Origin: a virus
DNA: 64,000 nt
Reading direction: 5' to 3' (one strand)
Virus record (IMG/VR): IMGVR_UViG_3300028902_000368
Part shown: positions 23,399-43,147 of the stretch, piece after piece
How positions within the stretch are numbered: the first letter of the stretch is position 1
Layout: each line of letters begins with the position of its first letter
The notes under the pieces: model-generated
The model's input: the letters and a program-made list of their open reading frames with translations, nothing else
Told to the model about the DNA's origin: nothing
Databases searched by the model: none
Program-made: the position numbers and the translations under genes

Positions 23399-24264
23399 AA
23401 CCGTACACCCCACACGTAGCGCTGGTTGCCATGCTCCGAGCGTTGCAACACGAGAACCTGCGGCAGCGGCTCGCTCACAACCACGTCTCGAGTGAACACC
23501 TGACGTTCCGTGAGGCAGAACGCAGCGACCTCCTCCGGTTCGATGGCGTGATTGTCGTCGCCACGGTCGGTGGCCACACCGCCATCAACGCCGTCCGTCA
23601 GCGCTGCGACGACACCCAGCGTCCGTGCATCCTCGTCGACCACAAGGCCTCCGCGTGGCCTTGGGAACGGATCCGGTCGCTTCCCATCATCCGGAACCTG
23701 GACGCGCCCCGCCGAGACCGAGAGGAACCCCCCTTCTTGGCGGAGGATGCAGCGGCCATTCTTCCCAAGGGCATCGTCTCCTTCGGCGATTGCCTGCGCG
23801 CCGCTCGCGAGTCGAACAACCTCGACTACGACACCCTGGCCGAGCTGATGAGTCTCGCGCACGAGCCTGTCGCTGCTGTACGCCACTGCGCGTCGTGGGA
23901 GTCGGACAGCTCCTCGCCGACCCGTGAGGAGCACGCGCTCCTCTTGGAACTGTTCCCCGCGCTCAAGTTCGCACCCCTCCCTGCCTGGCCTGTCGCGACC
24001 GACGATGGGCTCGAGGGCAACGAGTGGGTCACCGCTTCGCTGACCATCGCACGCCCCTCTTCTTCGCTCGACACCCCCGAACCCGAGGTCCCCATGCCTG
24101 CTCCTCAGCTCGACAAGAGCGACGTCATCAAGCTCGCGACCCTCACCGCCACCGCCCGCAGTACCCTTCCTGATGGCGTCCGGGACCTGCTCCTGACAGC
24201 CCAGCGGCTCAACTTCACCCTCCAAGACGTCCTCGACCTTCTCGCCATCCAGGAGCCTTCGTGA
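23395..24264 (+). CDS. Protein with DUF2325-like N-terminus and XRE-like HTH
   Basis: DGVIVVATVGGH..AINAVR and SFGDCLRAARESNNLDYDTLAELM. Confidence 0.55.
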   Translation: MKPYTPHVALVAMLRALQHENLRQRLAHNHVSSEHLTFREAERSDLLRFDGVIVVATVGGHTAINAVRQRCDDTQRPCILVDHKASAWPWERIRSLPIIRNLDAPRRDREEPPFLAEDAAAILPKGIVSFGDCLRAARESNNLDYDTLAELMSLAHEPVAAVRHCASWESDSSSPTREEHALLLELFPALKFAPLPAWPVATDDGLEGNEWVTASLTIARPSSSLDTPEPEVPMPAPQLDKSDVIKLATLTATARSTLPDGVRDLLLTAQRLNFTLQDVLDLLAIQEPS

Positions 24265-25151
24265 TGCAGACGCAGCCCCAACCTCCCATCGCCAACCTGC
24301 TGCCCGACAAGACTGCGAAGGGGGACGGCGGGCGCTCGGCCGTCTTCTCGGCCTGCGGCCGGTTCCGCTACCGGCTCGACATCCCCCTGAACACCCAGCA
24401 GAGCCTGTTCGCCTCCGAGCTCAAGGGCGGCCGCTGCACCTTCCTGATGCTCAACCCCTCCACGGCCGACCAGAACGTCAACGACCCCACCGTCCGACGG
24501 GTCGTCCAGTACGCCCGCGACTGGGGGTTCAGCGACGTCACCGTGATCAACCTCTTCGCCTACCGCAGCACCGACCCCGACAAGCTCCTCGAGCTGGGCC
24601 TGGCCAACAGTGTCGGCCCCAAGAACGACCGCTACATCCAAGACGTCGTCGCCAAGAGCAACCGGGTCGTCGTCGCCTGGGGGCGCACCTTCCAGCAGGA
24701 GGAAGTGTTCCGGGCTCGCGTCCGGGCGGTCCTGCGGCTGGTCGGCGAAGGGGCCGCCCCCGTCCTGACCCTCGGGCTCAACGACGACGGCAGCCCCAAG
24801 CACCCCCTCTACGTCGAGAAGTCCGTGCTCCCGCGCCCCTTCGACGCGAGCCGACAGATCCGCGTCGAGGAGCTGGACAGGCCCGAGAACTTCCACACCG
24901 TCACCGGCGACTACATGACCACCCCCGACGAGGCCATGGAACTCGCTCGCCCCAACCTCGTGCTCGGCGAGACCGGCGCCAACGCCTACCTTGAGTGCAA
25001 CGCCAAGGTCTTCAAGCTCACCCGCAAGACGAAGGGGAAGAAGGGCGACAAGAAGGTCGAGATCGAGATCCGTGGCACCTCCGGCAACGCCGCGCGCCGC
25101 AAGCGCGACGCCGAAGGCTTCTCCCCGATCACCATCAGTTGGACCCGATGA
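24261..25151 (+). CDS. DUF1643-family protein
   Basis: AVFSACGRFRYRL, FLMLNPSTAD, NLFAYRSTDP, VVVAWG and PKHPLY. Confidence 0.9.
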   Translation: MMQTQPQPPIANLLPDKTAKGDGGRSAVFSACGRFRYRLDIPLNTQQSLFASELKGGRCTFLMLNPSTADQNVNDPTVRRVVQYARDWGFSDVTVINLFAYRSTDPDKLLELGLANSVGPKNDRYIQDVVAKSNRVVVAWGRTFQQEEVFRARVRAVLRLVGEGAAPVLTLGLNDDGSPKHPLYVEKSVLPRPFDASRQIRVEELDRPENFHTVTGDYMTTPDEAMELARPNLVLGETGANAYLECNAKVFKLTRKTKGKKGDKKVEIEIRGTSGNAARRKRDAEGFSPITISWTR

Positions 25152-29484: not shown

Positions 29485-29886
29485 ATGAGCGACATCAAGC
29501 CTCCGACGGGTCGACGCACGTCCGACGAGCGGATCGCCCGCTGGGAGGCTGCCTGTGGCGAGGGCTGGGCCCCCATGAGCACGACCCCGCAGGAGATGCT
29601 CGACCTCATCGCCGACCTCAAGGACGCCGAGGCGCGCGTGCTCGAGCTCGAGCGGAAGATCACCGCTGGCACCGCCCTCTTGGTCGCGCCTGCACCGCCA
29701 TGGACCGTCTTCGCGGATCGAGGCGAGCCGCTTGCCATCCTCCCCGCGGGACGCCCCGGGACAGTGCTGAACGTGAAGGGTTGGGACGCTCGTGAGGTCG
29801 ACGAGCTGGTGAGAGCCGCCAACAGGAATCGGCGGTTCATGGCGCATCGTCTCGACCTCCCGGCGGCTCTCCGGAGTCGTCGATGA
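29485..29886 (+). CDS. Hypothetical phage protein (Ead/Ea22-like segment)
   Basis: PQEMLDLIADLKDAEARVLELE. Confidence 0.5.
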   Translation: MSDIKPPTGRRTSDERIARWEAACGEGWAPMSTTPQEMLDLIADLKDAEARVLELERKITAGTALLVAPAPPWTVFADRGEPLAILPAGRPGTVLNVKGWDAREVDELVRAANRNRRFMAHRLDLPAALRSRR

Positions 29887-30140
29887 CCCACCCACTGCGC
29901 GTCATCATCGGCGGTGTCCCCGTCGACCTCGAGCTGCTGCCGTTCCAGACCGTCGGCGACGCGCGCGACATCGCCATTCGCTTGACGCGCAACACTGGGC
30001 GGCCGAAGGACGACTGGCAGGCCTACGATCGCGACGGACGGCGCCTCGACATGGACGCCTTTGCTGACGACGTCGACGAGGTCTACTTCAGTCCCCACGT
30101 CGGGGCCGGCGGCAACCGCGCCTACGCCTTCGCCGCCTGA
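29883..30140 (+). CDS. Ubiquitin-like (DUF2604-like) protein with C-terminal extension
   Basis: LRVIIGG..V.L...VGDARDIA...TGRP.DDWQ..D.DG..LD...VYFSPHVGAGG followed by NRAYAFAA. Confidence 0.65.
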   Translation: MTHPLRVIIGGVPVDLELLPFQTVGDARDIAIRLTRNTGRPKDDWQAYDRDGRRLDMDAFADDVDEVYFSPHVGAGGNRAYAFAA

Positions 30141-30147
30141 CTCGTTG

Positions 30148-30222
30148 CGCGCTCTGCAGGACTCGAACCTGCAACATCCCGACGCCATAAGCCGGGTGCT
30201 CTACCATTTGAGCTAAGAGCGC
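30148..30222 (-). ncRNA. tRNA-like RNA with 6-bp anticodon stem (loop TTATGGC, nominal ATG)
   Basis: Acceptor GCGCTCT/AGAGCGC; canonical D arm and TTCGAGT T-loop; extra base pair in the anticodon stem. Confidence 0.7.
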
Positions 30223-30225
30223 TCG

Positions 30226-30308
30226 TGGGGGAGGGTGGAATTGAACCGACCTGCCTCCACCGAGACCGCGAGGGTCACGGCGGTGCTCTGCCGATGAGCT
30301 ACTCCCCC
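30226..30308 (-). ncRNA. tRNA-like RNA with elongated anticodon arm and no 7-nt loop
   Basis: Acceptor GGGGGAG/CTCCCCC; CCGCC/GGTGG stem encloses 17 nt containing a GACC/GGTC hairpin. Confidence 0.7.
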
Positions 30309-37838: not shown

Positions 37839-37866
37839 ACTCTACCCATAATCGGGCACGTGTCAA
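37839..37866 (-). promoter_or_regulatory. Sigma70-like promoter of the tRNA-like cluster
   Basis: TTGACA-N16-TAGAGT. Confidence 0.6.
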
Positions 37867-38450
37867 GGCCCGATGGAAGAACGCACGAAACTCGGGGCGA
37901 TCTCGTAGTTCACGCGCTGCTCGTGGACCAGGAAGAGGCGGGCCGCCTCCGCGAGGTACGCCGACACGATGCCCACGAACGGCAGGAACGCGCCATCCTC
38001 GCACGTCGCCACGCCCGCGCCGGGCTCGTCGTCGATCTGGAAGCGCTCGTCCCAGACCACCCGCCCGTACGCGCCATCGGCCGCCAGGCCACCGTGGAGG
38101 CACGGGATGCCGCGCGCGCGCACGTAACCCTGCACGATGCGCCGGGATGCCCCGTTGTCCAGGCAGTCGATCACCAGCGCGGATCCACCCAGGAGTTGCT
38201 CCTCGTTGTCGGCCGTCAGGCGGTGCGGCACCGTCTCCACGCGGCGGTTGAACAGGAAGTGCATCTGCTGCGCGAGCGCCGACACCTTCGGCTTCCCGAT
38301 CCCCGGCATCCCGAGGAACTGGGACTGCGTGTTCTTCGACTCGACCCGGTCGAAGTCGATCACACGCAGGACCGTGTCCGTGCTTCGCAGGAACTGCGTC
38401 ACGTGCGACCCCAGCGCGCCCGCACCCACGATCGTGACCATCTTCTTCAT
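37863..38450 (-). CDS. ThiF/MoeB (E1-like) adenylyltransferase
   Basis: IVGAGALGS, VIDFDRVESKN..SQ, IGKPKV, VIDCLDN..SR and C-terminal Cys (VATCED). Confidence 0.9.
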   Translation of the reverse strand: MKKMVTIVGAGALGSHVTQFLRSTDTVLRVIDFDRVESKNTQSQFLGMPGIGKPKVSALAQQMHFLFNRRVETVPHRLTADNEEQLLGGSALVIDCLDNGASRRIVQGYVRARGIPCLHGGLAADGAYGRVVWDERFQIDDEPGAGVATCEDGAFLPFVGIVSAYLAEAARLFLVHEQRVNYEIAPSFVRSSIGP

Positions 38451-38611
38451 GATGAGGCCTCTTCCTTCGGCACGAACTCTTCGCAGTCGCACGCTTCCAT
38501 CCGCATGGAGCCGGGCGCGCAGCCAGTGACCACTTGGCAGCCCTCGACGTCGTCGTGCACCGACTCGAGGTGGCCGCACCGCCGACACACGCGCGCGCTC
38601 TCGTCAGGCAT
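38447..38611 (-). CDS. Small Cys/His-rich protein
   Basis: CRRCGH..H..GC...CDC; ATGA overlap with the E1 gene. Confidence 0.55.
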   Translation of the reverse strand: MPDESARVCRRCGHLESVHDDVEGCQVVTGCAPGSMRMEACDCEEFVPKEEASS

Positions 38612-38813
38612 CGTCCGCCTCCAACGTTTCCTTGGCCTCGAGCTCGCTGAGGCCGCGCTCCAACGCGAGCCGGAGCACCGCCGCCATCGACACCCTGATG
38701 CCGCACGCCCGCTTCGACAGCGTCGCGGCCAACGCCTTCGCACGAGCCGCCGTCTCTTCGGAGACGCTGACGGTGAGGGTGACCTGCACCGTGTCCTTCT
38801 TGGGCCTCCCCAT
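38604..38813 (-). CDS. Ribbon-helix-helix-like small regulator
   Basis: MGRPKKDTVQVTLTVSVSEE...SMAAVLRLALERGL. Confidence 0.6.
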   Translation of the reverse strand: MGRPKKDTVQVTLTVSVSEETAARAKALAATLSKRACGIRVSMAAVLRLALERGLSELEAKETLEADDA

Positions 38814-38820
38814 CGCCCCT

Positions 38821-39081
38821 CTACTTGGCCGCCAGGGTCGACAGGGTCTCGCTGAGCTTCTCGATGGCCGTGACCAGCTCGAGCTGCACCGCAAGCGCCT
38901 GTAGCTCGCGGGATCGCACCCGGTAGGCCGGACAGTGGGGGTTGGTGCAGTAGGCCTCCGTGCCCTCTTGGTACGTCGGCCAACCGCATGGCGGGTCGGG
39001 GAACGACGGGGAAAGGGCAACCGCGCAGGTGCCCTGACGGATGCGCAGTCGCTGCGACGACGTGCCGACGACGTGGTTCAT
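38821..39081 (-). CDS. Hypothetical protein
   Basis: ATGA overlap; Cys motif. Confidence 0.5.
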   Translation of the reverse strand: MNHVVGTSSQRLRIRQGTCAVALSPSFPDPPCGWPTYQEGTEAYCTNPHCPAYRVRSRELQALAVQLELVTAIEKLSETLSTLAAK

Positions 39082-39758
39082 CGCCGAACCGTTCCGGCGA
39101 GACCGAGCGCCGCCAGGTCCTCTTCGGTGAGCTTCGCCAGGGCGCGGGCGCGAGCCGCCCCCTCGTCTTCGACGAGCATCTGCACCTCCTCGCCGAGCAG
39201 GTAGAGCTTGCCGTCCCACTCGACCATCCGCTCGGTGGCCTGATGGACGTCGGCGTCGGCCCCGAACACCCCGCGGCCCTTGGCGCACTGGCTCGCGAGG
39301 GCCAGGCTCGAGGACCGGCCGATCACGACCCTATCACCACGCCCTTCGCATGTGTCCGTGTTGCTGACCACTTGGTAGTGCGTGAACTCGTAGACGGTCG
39401 CGTTGCGAGTGGACGGCTTGGCCGCCGCCTCCACCGCACCGACGAGGACGATGATGGTCTCGCCGATGCGGATCTCGTCTCCGACCTTGATCTTGGCCTT
39501 GCTGACGCACACCCCGTTCAACAGCACACGGCCGGAAACGCCGATGTCGATCAGCATGAGGTCCCCGGGGCTCGCGCCAACCTCGATGACCGCCTGCATG
39601 CGGGCTGCGGTCGGTTCGGTGAGCCTGATGTGTGCGCCCTCGTCACGCCCGATCTTGACCAGGTATTCCGTCACCAACACGGTTTCTGGGAGACCTTTGG
39701 CGTAGATCGCGGCGACCGAGGACACGGTGAAGTGCAGCGTCATCTTTCGCTTGGCCAT
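39078..39758 (-). CDS. Degenerate FHA-domain protein
   Basis: KIGRD...IRL..P..ARMQAVIE...LIDIG...LLNG...IKVGDEIRIGET. Confidence 0.65.
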   Translation of the reverse strand: MAKRKMTLHFTVSSVAAIYAKGLPETVLVTEYLVKIGRDEGAHIRLTEPTAARMQAVIEVGASPGDLMLIDIGVSGRVLLNGVCVSKAKIKVGDEIRIGETIIVLVGAVEAAAKPSTRNATVYEFTHYQVVSNTDTCEGRGDRVVIGRSSSLALASQCAKGRGVFGADADVHQATERMVEWDGKLYLLGEEVQMLVEDEGAARARALAKLTEEDLAALGLAGTVRR

Positions 39759-39765
39759 GGGTTCC

Positions 39766-40092
39766 TCAGCGCCGGTTGACGACAGCGCCAGAGACGCTGC
39801 CCGACACGTTGCCGCAGTTCACCGCGTTGCCGTGCACGCTGCCGCCCACGGCCTCGCAGTTGACGACGTTCGCGCGCACGTCGCCTTGGACGTCGCCGCA
39901 GCGGACGTCGCCGCCGTGGACCGTCAGGTTCGCCAGCGGCCCCTCCCACTGGATCGTGGTGGGGCCCCCGTCCTTGCTCGTCTGCGCGACCTCGCGGCCG
40001 TCCACGACGACACGGCCGTTGCTGACCGTGACGCTGTTGCTGTCGCCCTCGATCACGATGCGACGACCGTTGACGATGATGACGCTGCTCAT
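39766..40092 (-). CDS. Gly/Val/Asn-rich beta-solenoid-like phage protein
   Basis: Repeating V.CG.V.G.V motifs. Confidence 0.65.
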   Translation of the reverse strand: MSSVIIVNGRRIVIEGDSNSVTVSNGRVVVDGREVAQTSKDGGPTTIQWEGPLANLTVHGGDVRCGDVQGDVRANVVNCEAVGGSVHGNAVNCGNVSGSVSGAVVNRR

Positions 40093-40094
40093 GG

Positions 40095-40373
40095 TCAGGT
40101 CCCGAACGGCACCTTCGGCCGCACCATGAAGCGCGTGTAGGGGTACTGCTCGGACGGGTCGACCCGGTCGACCACGAAGTCGCGGCTGAAGTCGGCCCGC
40201 GGGTCCGCCGGGATGCCGGGGAAACCCCCCGTGCGCACCGCCTCGGTCACGATCGCCAGCACCTGCGCGTCCGTGCTGTCCAACGCCACCGCGTCGGGCA
40301 GGTCCACGTTGCGCGAGACGCCACCCGGGCTGTAGGTCAGGTTCACCAACGCCTGATTCGCTTCGATTGCCAT
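40095..40373 (-). CDS. Putative ubiquitin-like protein ending RPKVPFG-T
   Basis: About 92 aa with beta-grasp-like pattern and C-terminal Gly plus one residue; near the E1 and JAB genes. Confidence 0.55.
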   Translation of the reverse strand: MAIEANQALVNLTYSPGGVSRNVDLPDAVALDSTDAQVLAIVTEAVRTGGFPGIPADPRADFSRDFVVDRVDPSEQYPYTRFMVRPKVPFGT

Positions 40374-40431
40374 GAGGATTCTCCTGTTGTCGGATGGTCC
40401 TAGCATGGCCCGCACGGGTACGCCAGATGGG

Positions 40432-40785
40432 TCAGTCGCCCTCGTCGCGGAACAGCTCGCGTCCCTCCGAGTAGTGCATCTTGGTGTCGGCGGGGAAGAT
40501 CCGGAAGTAGTCGATCTCGTGGAAGGACACGTTCTTGGTCCCCCTCTGGGTGCGCTTGAACCAGTCGGCCAGCGCCCCCTCCAAGAGCGCGTGTGGGCTC
40601 TCGCAGTCGCACCACGTACCGTCCATGCCGTCCCACTGACGGACCACGAACCCCTGGTCGCTCTCGGGCATCACCTGGTGCAGCGTCAGGTAGCGCGCGT
40701 AGGCCTGCGCCACGATCGACTCGTCGCCGGCAGCCACGTCGGTCACAGCGTCCTCCAACGTGCGCTCTTCCGCGTCCGGAACCAC
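40432..40785 (-). CDS. Hypothetical phage protein (start uncertain)
   Basis: WDGMDG.W.D...IDYFRIFPADT.M motif. Confidence 0.6.
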   Translation of the reverse strand: MVPDAEERTLEDAVTDVAAGDESIVAQAYARYLTLHQVMPESDQGFVVRQWDGMDGTWCDCESPHALLEGALADWFKRTQRGTKNVSFHEIDYFRIFPADTKMHYSEGRELFRDEGD

Positions 40786-40968
40786 GACGACTGGTCGGGC
40801 TTGACCCGGTAGGGCACGTGCTCGGCCGCAGGGCGCTCGATCGCCTTGCGGAACCATCCGCACGGTTCCCAGGCCCCGTGGTCTTCACGAACGCCATCGG
40901 CGCTCGGACCTCGAAGCGCAGCGGGCGCTCCATGACCGTCAGGAGTCGCTTCAACCGACGCCAGTGCT

Positions 40969-41478
40969 TCATGGGAGCACCTTCAGTCCCGTGTAGACCT
41001 CGATCCCGCGGAGCCGTGTCTCGCTGATCGACATGCGCCGCTCCAGCTCCTCGATCCGGTCTTGCTCCGGGGTCTCGACCAAGAGGCCGAGGCTCGCGAA
41101 CATCGCCGCGTTGAAGTCCCGGAACGAGCACTCCTTACGCAGGAGCCTCTCCGGCCGGACCCACTTCGCCGTCAGCCCCGTCTCGGCGATGAGCTTCGGC
41201 GGAGCGGGGGTGCCGAGGGTGACCGAGTAGACGTACGCCATCCGCCCGGAGGTCGTGCCCGTCTCCCGCTGATAGACGAGTTGGAGCTGGTTCGGGTGGA
41301 TCTCCAGCCCCGTCTCCTCCTCGAGTTCGCGCGCCGCCCCGTAGACCGCGATCTCGTGCGGCTCGAGCTTCCCTCCGGGGAGGTTGAGATCCTGCTCGTT
41401 GTTGCGGCGGCTCACGGCCACGATGAAGCCCTGCCACCACACCAGCACGAGCCCCGCAGGCGGAAACTGCGTCGTCAC
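40969..41478 (-). CDS. NUDIX hydrolase
   Basis: Nudix box GGKLEPHEIAVYGAARELEEETGL. Confidence 0.9.
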   Translation of the reverse strand: MTTQFPPAGLVLVWWQGFIVAVSRRNNEQDLNLPGGKLEPHEIAVYGAARELEEETGLEIHPNQLQLVYQRETGTTSGRMAYVYSVTLGTPAPPKLIAETGLTAKWVRPERLLRKECSFRDFNAAMFASLGLLVETPEQDRIEELERRMSISETRLRGIEVYTGLKVLP

Positions 41479-42143
41479 GTGTCACCTCGACAGTCGAGCG
41501 CGTATTTCATGTACTTCACGATGCCCGCCGACTGCGTCGCGTACAAGTGCGGACGCACCGCAGGCACACGAATCGCCACCCGCAAGAGGTCGATGATGCC
41601 AACGCCACGCAAGCGGTCCAGCCCCTCGCAGAGCAGCCCGAGGCGCGCCTGCGGCCCCACCCTCGCCGGGATCGCGGTCTCGTAGCTGTCCACCAGGCGC
41701 GCGCACGCCATCGACAGCTGGTCCGGGGTCGAGAGCGCCAAGAGCAGGATCCGCCAAGGAAGGTCGTCCGGAGGCTCGGTGACCAGGTAGTCGACCACCT
41801 GCATCCCTTGGCGCTTCTGGCGGTGGTCCCCCTCCGTCAGGGCGAACATCTTGACCCGGCAGACCCGACTGTCGCTGATCGACATGATCCACCAGTCGAC
41901 CGGTCGCCCGAGCCCGTACACCGACTCCACGTTGCGGAAGGTCGTGAGGTCGGTCGACGACGGCATCGGCGGTCCATAGCCAGGGTGGGAGTGCGCCACG
42001 CCCGCGAGGTTTCCCGCCGCGTGGTGCTTGAGCAGTTCGTCCCAGAGCCGCTCCTCCGGCAGGTAGCCGACCGAACGGTCCTTGGGCGTGTGGTGGTAGA
42101 GCACCTCGCCTGACGTCCCCAGCACGATCGCAGCCTCGAGCAT
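41475..42143 (-). CDS. JAB/MPN-domain metalloprotease (deubiquitinase-like)
   Basis: N-terminal Glu and HSHP-x7-S-x2-D (AHSHPGYGPPMPSSTD). Confidence 0.85.
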   Translation of the reverse strand: MLEAAIVLGTSGEVLYHHTPKDRSVGYLPEERLWDELLKHHAAGNLAGVAHSHPGYGPPMPSSTDLTTFRNVESVYGLGRPVDWWIMSISDSRVCRVKMFALTEGDHRQKRQGMQVVDYLVTEPPDDLPWRILLLALSTPDQLSMACARLVDSYETAIPARVGPQARLGLLCEGLDRLRGVGIIDLLRVAIRVPAVRPHLYATQSAGIVKYMKYALDCRGDT

Positions 42144-42148
42144 CGTCC

Positions 42149-43147
42149 TCACCCAACCCTTCGGTACACCACCAACTTGTTCTCCCGGATGGCCTGGCGG
42201 ACCACCGTCGGGATCGATTCCAGGGTGAGCATCGTGTCGCCCTTCTCCCCCGCGTCGAACCCGTCGTCCCCGTGCGACGTCAGGCAGATGCCCGCGTCCA
42301 CGATCTGGAGGGTCCGGGCGATGCACACGCACTCGAGGCGATGCTGCTGCACCCGGTAGCGGACCACCATCTCCCCCCGACGCGCCGACGCACGGTGGTC
42401 CAGGTACTCGGCGCCCCCGACCCGCAACGCCGCCTGGGCGGCCGCCCGGAAGTCGGTCGCCGCGAGCTCTCGGCGGCTCTCGGCCGTGCCGATCGTCCGC
42501 ATCAGCTCGGCCCGCCGCTCCTCCAAGCGCCGACGCTCCTCGGCCTCCCGCTCCTGCCGCTCGATCTCGAGGCGCCGCCGCTCCGCCTCCTCCTTCTGGA
42601 AGACCTCCATCCGGAAGGCCATCTCGAGCGCCGGGACGACCCCCTTGACCGCCCGGAGCCCCGCCAGGCCTCCACCGTCCAGGAAGACCTGGTTGGCCTC
42701 TCCCTCGGGCCCCAGGGGCATCACGCGCCCCATGTAGACGAGGGGACCGTGCTCGTGGATGCGGCCCACTTGGATGTGCTCGAACCGGTCCAAGCCCGGC
42801 TCCACCAGGTGCACCCGCTCGGTCTCCGTCCCGATCCGCTCGAACTTCCACGGGTTGAAGCCCGTCCTCGACGACGGCACGAACCGATCGCCCGCCAGGT
42901 AGCCCTGCTGGACGTCGACCAGGTGGGGCTGCCACTGCTCCGGGCTCTGGAAGACGTCGTCCTCCGGCACCGACCGCAGGAACAGCGCTCGGCCGTTCGT
43001 CTTGGTCGCGAAGACGCACCAGCTGTGCTCCACGGGCAGAGGGCCCTCGATCTTCCACCCGACCACCCCACGGCGCAGCTGGCGGCCCCCCAGCCAGGGG
43101 AACCACTGCTCCGTCGGGGCCTGCTCGAGGAACCGCGCGTAGCTCAT
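42149..43147 (-). CDS. Hypothetical protein upstream of JAB; candidate E2-like component
   Basis: Coiled coil, then a C-terminal domain RLECVC...LQIVDAGICL...TLESIP; only a 5-nt gap to JAB. E2 role is inference. Confidence 0.45.
   Translation of the reverse strand: MSYARFLEQAPTEQWFPWLGGRQLRRGVVGWKIEGPLPVEHSWCVFATKTNGRALFLRSVPEDDVFQSPEQWQPHLVDVQQGYLAGDRFVPSSRTGFNPWKFERIGTETERVHLVEPGLDRFEHIQVGRIHEHGPLVYMGRVMPLGPEGEANQVFLDGGGLAGLRAVKGVVPALEMAFRMEVFQKEEAERRRLEIERQEREAEERRRLEERRAELMRTIGTAESRRELAATDFRAAAQAALRVGGAEYLDHRASARRGEMVVRYRVQQHRLECVCIARTLQIVDAGICLTSHGDDGFDAGEKGDTMLTLESIPTVVRQAIRENKLVVYRRVG

Follow-up and report, generated by a model that had tools for sequence, protein, structure and literature searches.

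The gene at positions 29883-30140 encodes a BilA-type ubiquitin-like protein (Ubl), the kind of tag that Type II Bil systems use against phages. It stands as an orphan outside any Bil operon. The eight residues that cover its C-terminal Gly-Gly appear, by comparison with the family, to be a typical pro-peptide, and a Gly-Gly capped in this manner is ordinary and no discovery. The novel part is the orphan, phage-borne BilA-type precursor; family membership and the cap are of an already known type. The explanation that we consider probable is that a single-domain BilA-type Ubl is made as an inactive precursor whose cap is an ordinary pro-peptide, and that the AFAA ending of this cap is neither conserved nor needed for the mechanism.

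The features on which the argument rests are given below. They lie in the window, which is the whole stretch of 64,000 nucleotides of viral DNA that was analysed (IMG/VR record IMGVR_UViG_3300028902_000368).

24174-25148, plus strand: gene of the DUF1643 family (counterparts at L013 3562-4074 and L015 1-225)
25680-27431, plus strand: DnaB-type replicative helicase (DnaB_C, E 2.9e-93), heading the same-strand run that ends with the Ubl gene
29485-29886, plus strand: upstream 133-aa gene, whose stop overlaps the Ubl start (ATGA)
29883-30140, plus strand: BilA-type (DUF2604) Ubl precursor, 85 aa (ORF, PF10790, match of the family profile to BilA, beta-grasp model)
30102-30113, plus strand: G-A-G-G, codons 74-77, the conserved C-terminal activation motif, aligned as G-x-G-G in nearly all of 123 relatives
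30114-30137, plus strand: eight-codon cap NRAYAFAA, with a degron-like ending, followed by TGA at 30138-30140
30147-30222, minus strand: tRNA-His-like gene found by ARAGORN, anticodon read as ATG (A34), convergent with the Ubl gene and 6 nt from its stop
37863-38450, minus strand: minimal, 195-aa ThiF/MoeB-type E1-like adenylyltransferase (ThiF E 8.9e-23; best solved relative MoeB)
40095-40373, minus strand: small ORF inside the E1-JAB module, coding-like (GC3 0.94)
41475-42143, minus strand: candidate JAMM/JAB-type peptidase (HSH...SSTD motif invariant in 6 homologues; weak Prok-JAB match)

The Ubl gene and its setting

The ORF at 29883-30140 is a genuine gene of 85 codons. It starts with ATG and its product ends in ...SPHVGAGG-NRAYAFAA, after which comes the TGA. 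The GC content at codon positions 1, 2 and 3 is 0.72, 0.45 and 0.88, respectively, which agrees with the other coding frames of this window of 67% GC, and the pattern is absent from the antisense frames that overlap the ORF. The ATG shares bases with the upstream stop codon (ATGA), and a GGAG precedes it by 6 nt. The upstream 133-aa gene is without a Pfam or PHROG family. In related populations its 3' part (29651-29870) is swapped for unrelated sequence, so that 218 nt become 197 nt in run X5, and its orthologue in L003 is 96 aa long. An RNA library (run X22) yielded a contig that spans 29870-30154; as DNA carry-over is possible, this contig is not proof of transcription.

An earlier note on this DNA had placed the Ubl in a replication gene cluster, and this is correct. 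The Ubl gene closes a same-strand run that has the DnaB helicase and a DUF433 protein at its start, and the order from DnaB to Ubl is retained in the relatives L001 and L003. The tRNA-His-like gene that follows the Ubl gene is retained in L003 and L008; in L001 an 84-aa gene lies in between. Two odd tRNA-like genes abut the Ubl stop on the minus strand (30147-30308): the tRNA-His-like gene and one with a 4-base "anticodon", GACC. The window as a whole is phage-like, with 29 tRNAs, DnaB, and synteny with uncultured contigs of 125 and 200 kb. In addition, a DUF1643-family gene is found a few genes 5' of a BilA-type Ubl gene in three otherwise dissimilar phage-like lineages, namely the window clade, L013 and L015, and it may be a conserved partner of BilA-type Ubls.

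Neither the DNA nor the protein of the Ubl matched GenBank phages, a scan of viral contigs found no relative, and PHROGs and PADLOC gave no match. A metagenome scan yielded four distant loci only. A match in a genome contig, located inside a 1647-aa Aeromicrobium surface protein, was discarded as a false positive. Within the window itself, a local profile search turned up no further gene of the DUF2604 type.

Assignment to the BilA family

The assignment to the BilA type follows from the Pfam match, the match of a family profile to solved BilA, the structural model with its Foldseek neighbours, and the presence of relatives in Bil operons. Pfam DUF2604 (PF10790) is matched with 32.6 bits (E 1.1e-7), above its cut-off of 25. 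No other Pfam family was matched at E<=1 and NCBIfam gave nothing, so there is no membership of the ThiS/MoaD families. A profile built from 15 family members matched the solved BilA chains 8tyx_A and 8tyz_B with an E-value of 2.5e-22 and the multi-domain BilA of 8u38/9d5b with about 6e-17, and the single Ubl sequence matched solved BilA at E 2.7e-5. In the reverse direction, BilA from a Polyangiales operon was used as the query against the six-frame ORFs of the whole window and found the Ubl ORF at 5e-9.

The AlphaFold2 model (pLDDT 85.6) is a beta-grasp of the order strand-strand-helix-strand-strand, in which residues 75-85 are predicted to be disordered (pLDDT <50). The top Foldseek matches of this model are the BilA chains 8tyx_A, which ranks first, and 8tyz_B (TM 0.77-0.83), followed by archaeal and eukaryotic ubiquitins. 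Additional support comes from gene neighbourhoods. P0103, a typical relative, lies in an operon that comprises the DUF2604 gene, a BilB-like E2, a 163-aa gene and a Prok-E2_C+ThiF E1 (BilD), with AbiEii adjoining, and a Polyangiales copy has Y4jH-like and BilD genes after it. The earlier note had described a DUF2604-type Ubl with a capped di-Gly; this description is borne out by the PF10790 score above the cut-off and by the ending GAGG-NRAYAFAA.

The G-x-G-G motif and its cap

A search for the family gave about 1,100 hits. The length of the stretch that follows G-x-G-G varies among the 123 relatives: there are 0 residues in nine of them, 1 in six, 2 in 75, and up to 16 residues at the upper end, and there is no common sequence. 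The motif itself is retained in all orphan phage copies examined, including those that are only about 30-35% identical. A similar arrangement has been described for BilA, where the glycine is universally conserved and is followed by up to nine non-conserved residues (Chambers et al., 10.1101/2023.09.26.559546), with overhangs of 2-9 aa given by Hoer et al. (10.1101/2023.09.04.556158). In Ensifer aridi BilA, Ala98 blocks the binding of ATP in the E1 BilD; BilC, a JAB peptidase, cleaves the Gly97-Ala98 bond, and the conserved C-terminal Gly of the trimmed protein becomes adenylated (10.1101/2023.09.26.559546). It is because variable overhangs are the rule in this family, and are already published for BilA, that we regard the eight residues in the window as a family-typical pro-peptide. 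With a published cap after the conserved Gly, no degron is needed to explain NRAYAFAA.

Some members of the family are larger. P0005 and P0014-P0017 (167-172 aa) are ISG15-like di-Ubls with two DUF2604 domains in tandem. Here, only domain 2 ends in G-V-G-G plus 2-5 residues, while domain 1 ends in G-A-G and runs into domain 2.

The E1, the JAB candidate and the search for Bil components

According to the earlier note, the phage that encodes the Ubl also has an E1 and a JAB, the E1 about 8 kb away on the opposite strand. Both enzymes were located by their signatures, the E1 as the ThiF protein at 37863-38450 and the JAB as the JAMM motif at 41475-42143; the measured distances from the Ubl gene are 7.7 kb for the E1 and 11.3 kb for the JAB, and both lie on the other strand. 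The ThiF protein is a possible activator of the Ubl and the JAMM product is a possible trimming enzyme. The latter has an intact H-x-H...S-x-x-D JAMM motif; its match to Prok-JAB (E 9.8e-4) is below the cut-off, and it has no sequence match to solved chains. Its AF2 model, with a pLDDT of 58, is too poor for a fold comparison with BilC, and the score of 0.01 that was returned by a complex prediction of JAB and Ubl has no bearing for or against binding. The small ORF between the two enzymes (40095-40373) has no Pfam family and is unrelated to the DUF2604 profile; it is probably the "first" Ubl that was implied by the earlier note.

No homologue of BilC, BilB or BilD was detectable by sequence in the 64 kb. 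A BilB-like query gave no match at E<=1 in the six-frame ORFs of the whole window, and there is no such Pfam family in the neighbours. A BilD query (a two-domain E1 of about 500 aa, BilD_N/Prok-E2_C plus ThiF) found nothing in the window's six-frame ORFs. The E1 and JAB of the window thus appear to be of a non-Bil type. Membership in a Bil system fails because there is no BilB and no BilD, and because the gene is phage-encoded.

The E1-JAB module and BilA-type Ubls also occur apart from one another. The virus Rctr197k (KX853510.1, 197 kb, a partial genome) carries homologues of the E1 (54% identity) and of the JAB (39%). No DUF2604-type ORF was found in this partial genome, where the best match has an E-value of 0.72 and five positive controls fall below 1e-26. 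Conversely, L010, L012, L013, L015 and L017 carry orphan BilA-type genes that are surrounded by polymerase, thymidylate-kinase, Thy1 or DUF1643 genes; the search of 6-10 kb around them showed no E1, E2 or JAB. An E1-JAB module without the Ubl in Rctr197k and orphan Ubls elsewhere show that the two are separable. Within GenBank, the Rctr197k locus (L020 8952-12624) comes closest to the E1-JAB module; the virus is from a methane-oxidising enrichment culture and is packed with tRNAs.

Conservation of the AFAA ending

The earlier note had asked whether homologues conserve a di-Gly followed by an xxAA tail. The first half of this holds, as GG is conserved family-wide; the second does not, as tails range over 0-16 residues with unrelated sequences and differ even among close relatives. 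Within the clade of the window, AFAA is retained in P0001 (94% identical, SRAYAFAA) and in P0002 (71%, NSAHAFAA). P0003 and P0019, which belong to the same clade and are 68-69% identical, have unrelated basic tails in place of AFAA. In the sister phage L001 (10260-10514; also in L002) there is an extra 84-aa ORF between the Ubl gene and the tRNA-His-like gene; this ORF overlaps the 3' end of the Ubl gene, and the AFAA tail is there replaced by a basic one. Since sister phages have basic tails, phages evidently persist without AFAA.

Population variants seen in further bioreactor and wetland samples have the ending unchanged. The natural variants of the tail are N78S, R79S and Y81H, together with two synonymous Ala changes, one of them at A82. 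Retention of AFAA across sub-lineages that are only about 70% identical, with Ala codons changing synonymously, suggests some constraint on the protein sequence of the tail. A different origin of the two alanines was considered, in which GCC GCC (Ala-Ala) is merely the complement of GGC GGC (Gly-Gly) in a hairpin or terminator shared with the convergent tRNA gene. This was rejected because the folding z-score is close to 0 for either strand, L008 retains AFAA although the pairing has gone, and no terminator-like site was found.

An Ala-Ala end is present in three of the five distinct sequences of the window clade. Two other orphan phage-like copies also end this way, P0009 in ...FAEAA and P0072 in ...GVLAA, and other orphan phage copies end in LNGIL, YKSFIPEYRNV or SVGIES, or are without a tail. 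Among 29 independent tails of at least 4 aa, Ala-Ala ends were counted three times against 0.9 expected (P about 0.05) and hydrophobic-Ala-Ala ends twice (P about 0.016), both by permutation test. When the window clade, which is the source of the hypothesis, is left out, the estimated P for Ala-Ala enrichment is about 0.14. The alanine content of the tails in these high-GC genomes is 18%. In the window, the Ubl is the only product with an Ala-Ala ending among about 60 coding-like ORFs.

The resemblance of the tail to a ClpXP signal can be judged against an unbiased screen in E. coli, which gave the consensus [L/F/Y/W]-[L/A/R]-L-A-A with the terminal Ala-Ala as the key determinant (PMC10862746). 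In the same screen 39% of tails that end in Ala-Ala were weak, position 3 preferred Leu, and Phe at this position was neither preferred nor listed as depleted (PMC10862746). Y-A-F-A-A fits four of the five consensus positions (two of the three before Ala-Ala) of what is an E. coli consensus and may differ from that of the host's ClpX.

Discussion

Comparison with known systems

The phage module at 37863-43147 resembles the archaeal SAMP/UbaA/HvJAMM1 and Thermus TtuB/TtuC systems in having a minimal MoeB/ThiF E1, a JAMM peptidase and a small Ubl with no canonical E2, but the window Ubl is, unlike the tags of those systems, not ThiS/MoaD/SAMP-like by sequence. Precursors with a masked Gly-Gly are familiar from eukaryotes: ubiquitin fusions and the precursors of NEDD8, SUMO and ISG15 have C-terminal extensions that are removed by DUBs, which exposes the Gly-Gly before the E1 acts. 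The window protein shares the masked Gly-Gly and differs in being viral and prokaryotic, and the peptidase that probably acts on it is a metalloprotease of the JAMM class, where the eukaryotic enzymes are cysteine proteases. Carriage of a host-type modifier by a virus that lacks the full conjugation machinery is known from baculovirus v-ubi. The window Ubl belongs to another Ubl lineage, the BilA type, and would meet a bacterial host in which the corresponding system is antiviral.

With Type II BilA of Ensifer aridi (PDB 8TYX/8TYZ; 10.1101/2023.09.26.559546, 10.1101/2023.09.04.556158), the window Ubl has in common the DUF2604 family, a single beta-grasp with an R-N-T-G-R-P...D-W core, and a conserved C-terminal Gly with a short non-conserved overhang, which in BilA is trimmed. 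The difference is one of setting and ending. BilA is encoded in a bacterial defence island, whereas the window gene lies in a large phage as an orphan that closes a replication run, and its overhang ends in AFAA. The difference extends to the rest of BilABCD, since the window is without a BilB E2 or BilD E1 in 64 kb and the E1 and JAB that are present are of another type and 7.7-11.3 kb away. As to the tail, ssrA and C-motif-1 ClpXP degrons (PMC7652416, PMC10862746) also have a disordered end of the form aromatic-Ala-hydrophobic-Ala-Ala-COOH. Unlike the ssrA tag, the window tail is encoded in the genome and not added by tmRNA, has Phe in place of the consensus Leu, and is not conserved among homologues.

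Proposed mechanism

The sequence of events that we favour is as follows. The orphan Ubl gene would be transcribed together with the replication genes. The beta-grasp core of the product ends in G-x-G-G, and eight residues that are predicted to be disordered would cover the reactive glycine. This cap would keep the phage Ubl inert until it is trimmed by a JAB-type peptidase, which may be the phage's own candidate (41475-42143) or BilC of the host. After trimming, an E1 would adenylate Gly77. AFAA may destabilise the precursor, whether incidentally or as a refinement peculiar to this lineage; it is taken to be dispensable because P0003 and P0019 have basic tails and L001 has a gene inserted at this point.

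Alternatives

The earlier note went further and read AFAA as an ssrA-like ClpXP degron, so that the unprocessed Ubl would be constantly destroyed, and removal of the tail by the JAB would both stabilise and activate it in a licensing switch. The likeness to ssrA stands, with YAFAA at four of the five E. coli positions in a tail that is predicted to be disordered and so accessible; a conserved degron does not, as the tail varies in the family and is replaced within the clade. We consider the switch unlikely. It is helped by the weight that ClpXP places on a terminal Ala-Ala (PMC10862746), by the singularity of this ending in the window, by the retention of AFAA in the window sequence with P0001 and in P0002 while the Ala codons change synonymously, and by the Ala-Ala ends of P0009 and P0072. 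Even so, many Ala-Ala tails are weak, and both the H at position 1 of P0002 and the G-V of P0072 are disfavoured (PMC10862746). The statistical enrichment is marginal and vanishes once the clade that generated the hypothesis is removed, the tails are rich in Ala in any case, and other orphan copies end quite differently or not at all. The consensus is moreover that of E. coli, and the host may differ in its ClpX and its tmRNA tag. That a phage captured the immune tag BilA and fitted it with a real ClpXP degron, which would leave the viral Ubl transient unless a JAB licenses it, is in our estimate quite improbable.

A less doubtful proposal, which we nevertheless hold only tentatively, is that the gene is a captured part of a defence system. 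The BilA look-alike would bind the BilD E1, the BilB E2 or BilC of the host, and the phage's E1 and JAB would serve a different Ubl. It might act as a capped, non-adenylatable dead-end ligand or, after trimming by host BilC, as a competitor of host BilA; in either case phage proteins would be tagged less, or the tagging would be diverted. A clear BilA homologue, yet no detectable BilB or BilD in 64 kb, is consistent with this, and so are the orphan BilA-type genes that several unrelated phage-like contigs carry near genes for replication or nucleotide metabolism. Rctr197k, which has the E1 and JAB and no BilA-type Ubl, points the same way, but its genome is partial. The decoy option is made somewhat more plausible by the finding that BilA with its cap still on sits in the E1 site and keeps ATP out; in E. 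aridi, one residue beyond the Gly blocks ATP binding in BilD (10.1101/2023.09.26.559546). Against this, the co-occurrence of an E1 and JAB in the same phage (the window, L001 and L003) fits use of the phage's own enzymes equally well, and the host may or may not have a Bil system. The two options, that the phage's minimal E1 and JAB act on the Ubl or that it meets host Bil as a decoy or competitor, carry roughly equal weight. It is very unlikely that the Ubl is never conjugated and serves as a non-covalent beta-grasp adaptor in the replication module, with G-G and tail as inherited baggage. Its constant position as the last gene of the DnaB run and the failure of the six-frame search of the window to find a cognate E2 would suit such a role. 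However, every orphan phage copy examined has retained G-x-G-G, even at about 30-35% identity, and selection on the reactive end is therefore favoured. We accordingly retain the capped, inactive precursor as the preferred explanation.

Biological meaning

Bil is the clearest bacterial counterpart of antiviral tagging by ISG15 and ubiquitin. To our knowledge, Bil systems have so far been described as host defences only, and a search of a limited collection of literature found no study that deals with DUF2604 or with BilA homologues encoded by phages. If the degron idea were true, it would be a new way of gating a Ubl: a degron on a captured BilA would act as a proteolytic timer on a virus-encoded Ubl that jams the host's Bil system or tags proteins during replication. 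If it is false, the gene is still a candidate anti-Bil factor. The interest of the gene rests more on a phage carrying a host immune tag than on the tail, and an orphan BilA-type Ubl that adjoins phage replication genes suggests that viruses of bacteria put this tag to their own use or subvert it, much as ubiquitin is treated by some viruses of eukaryotes.
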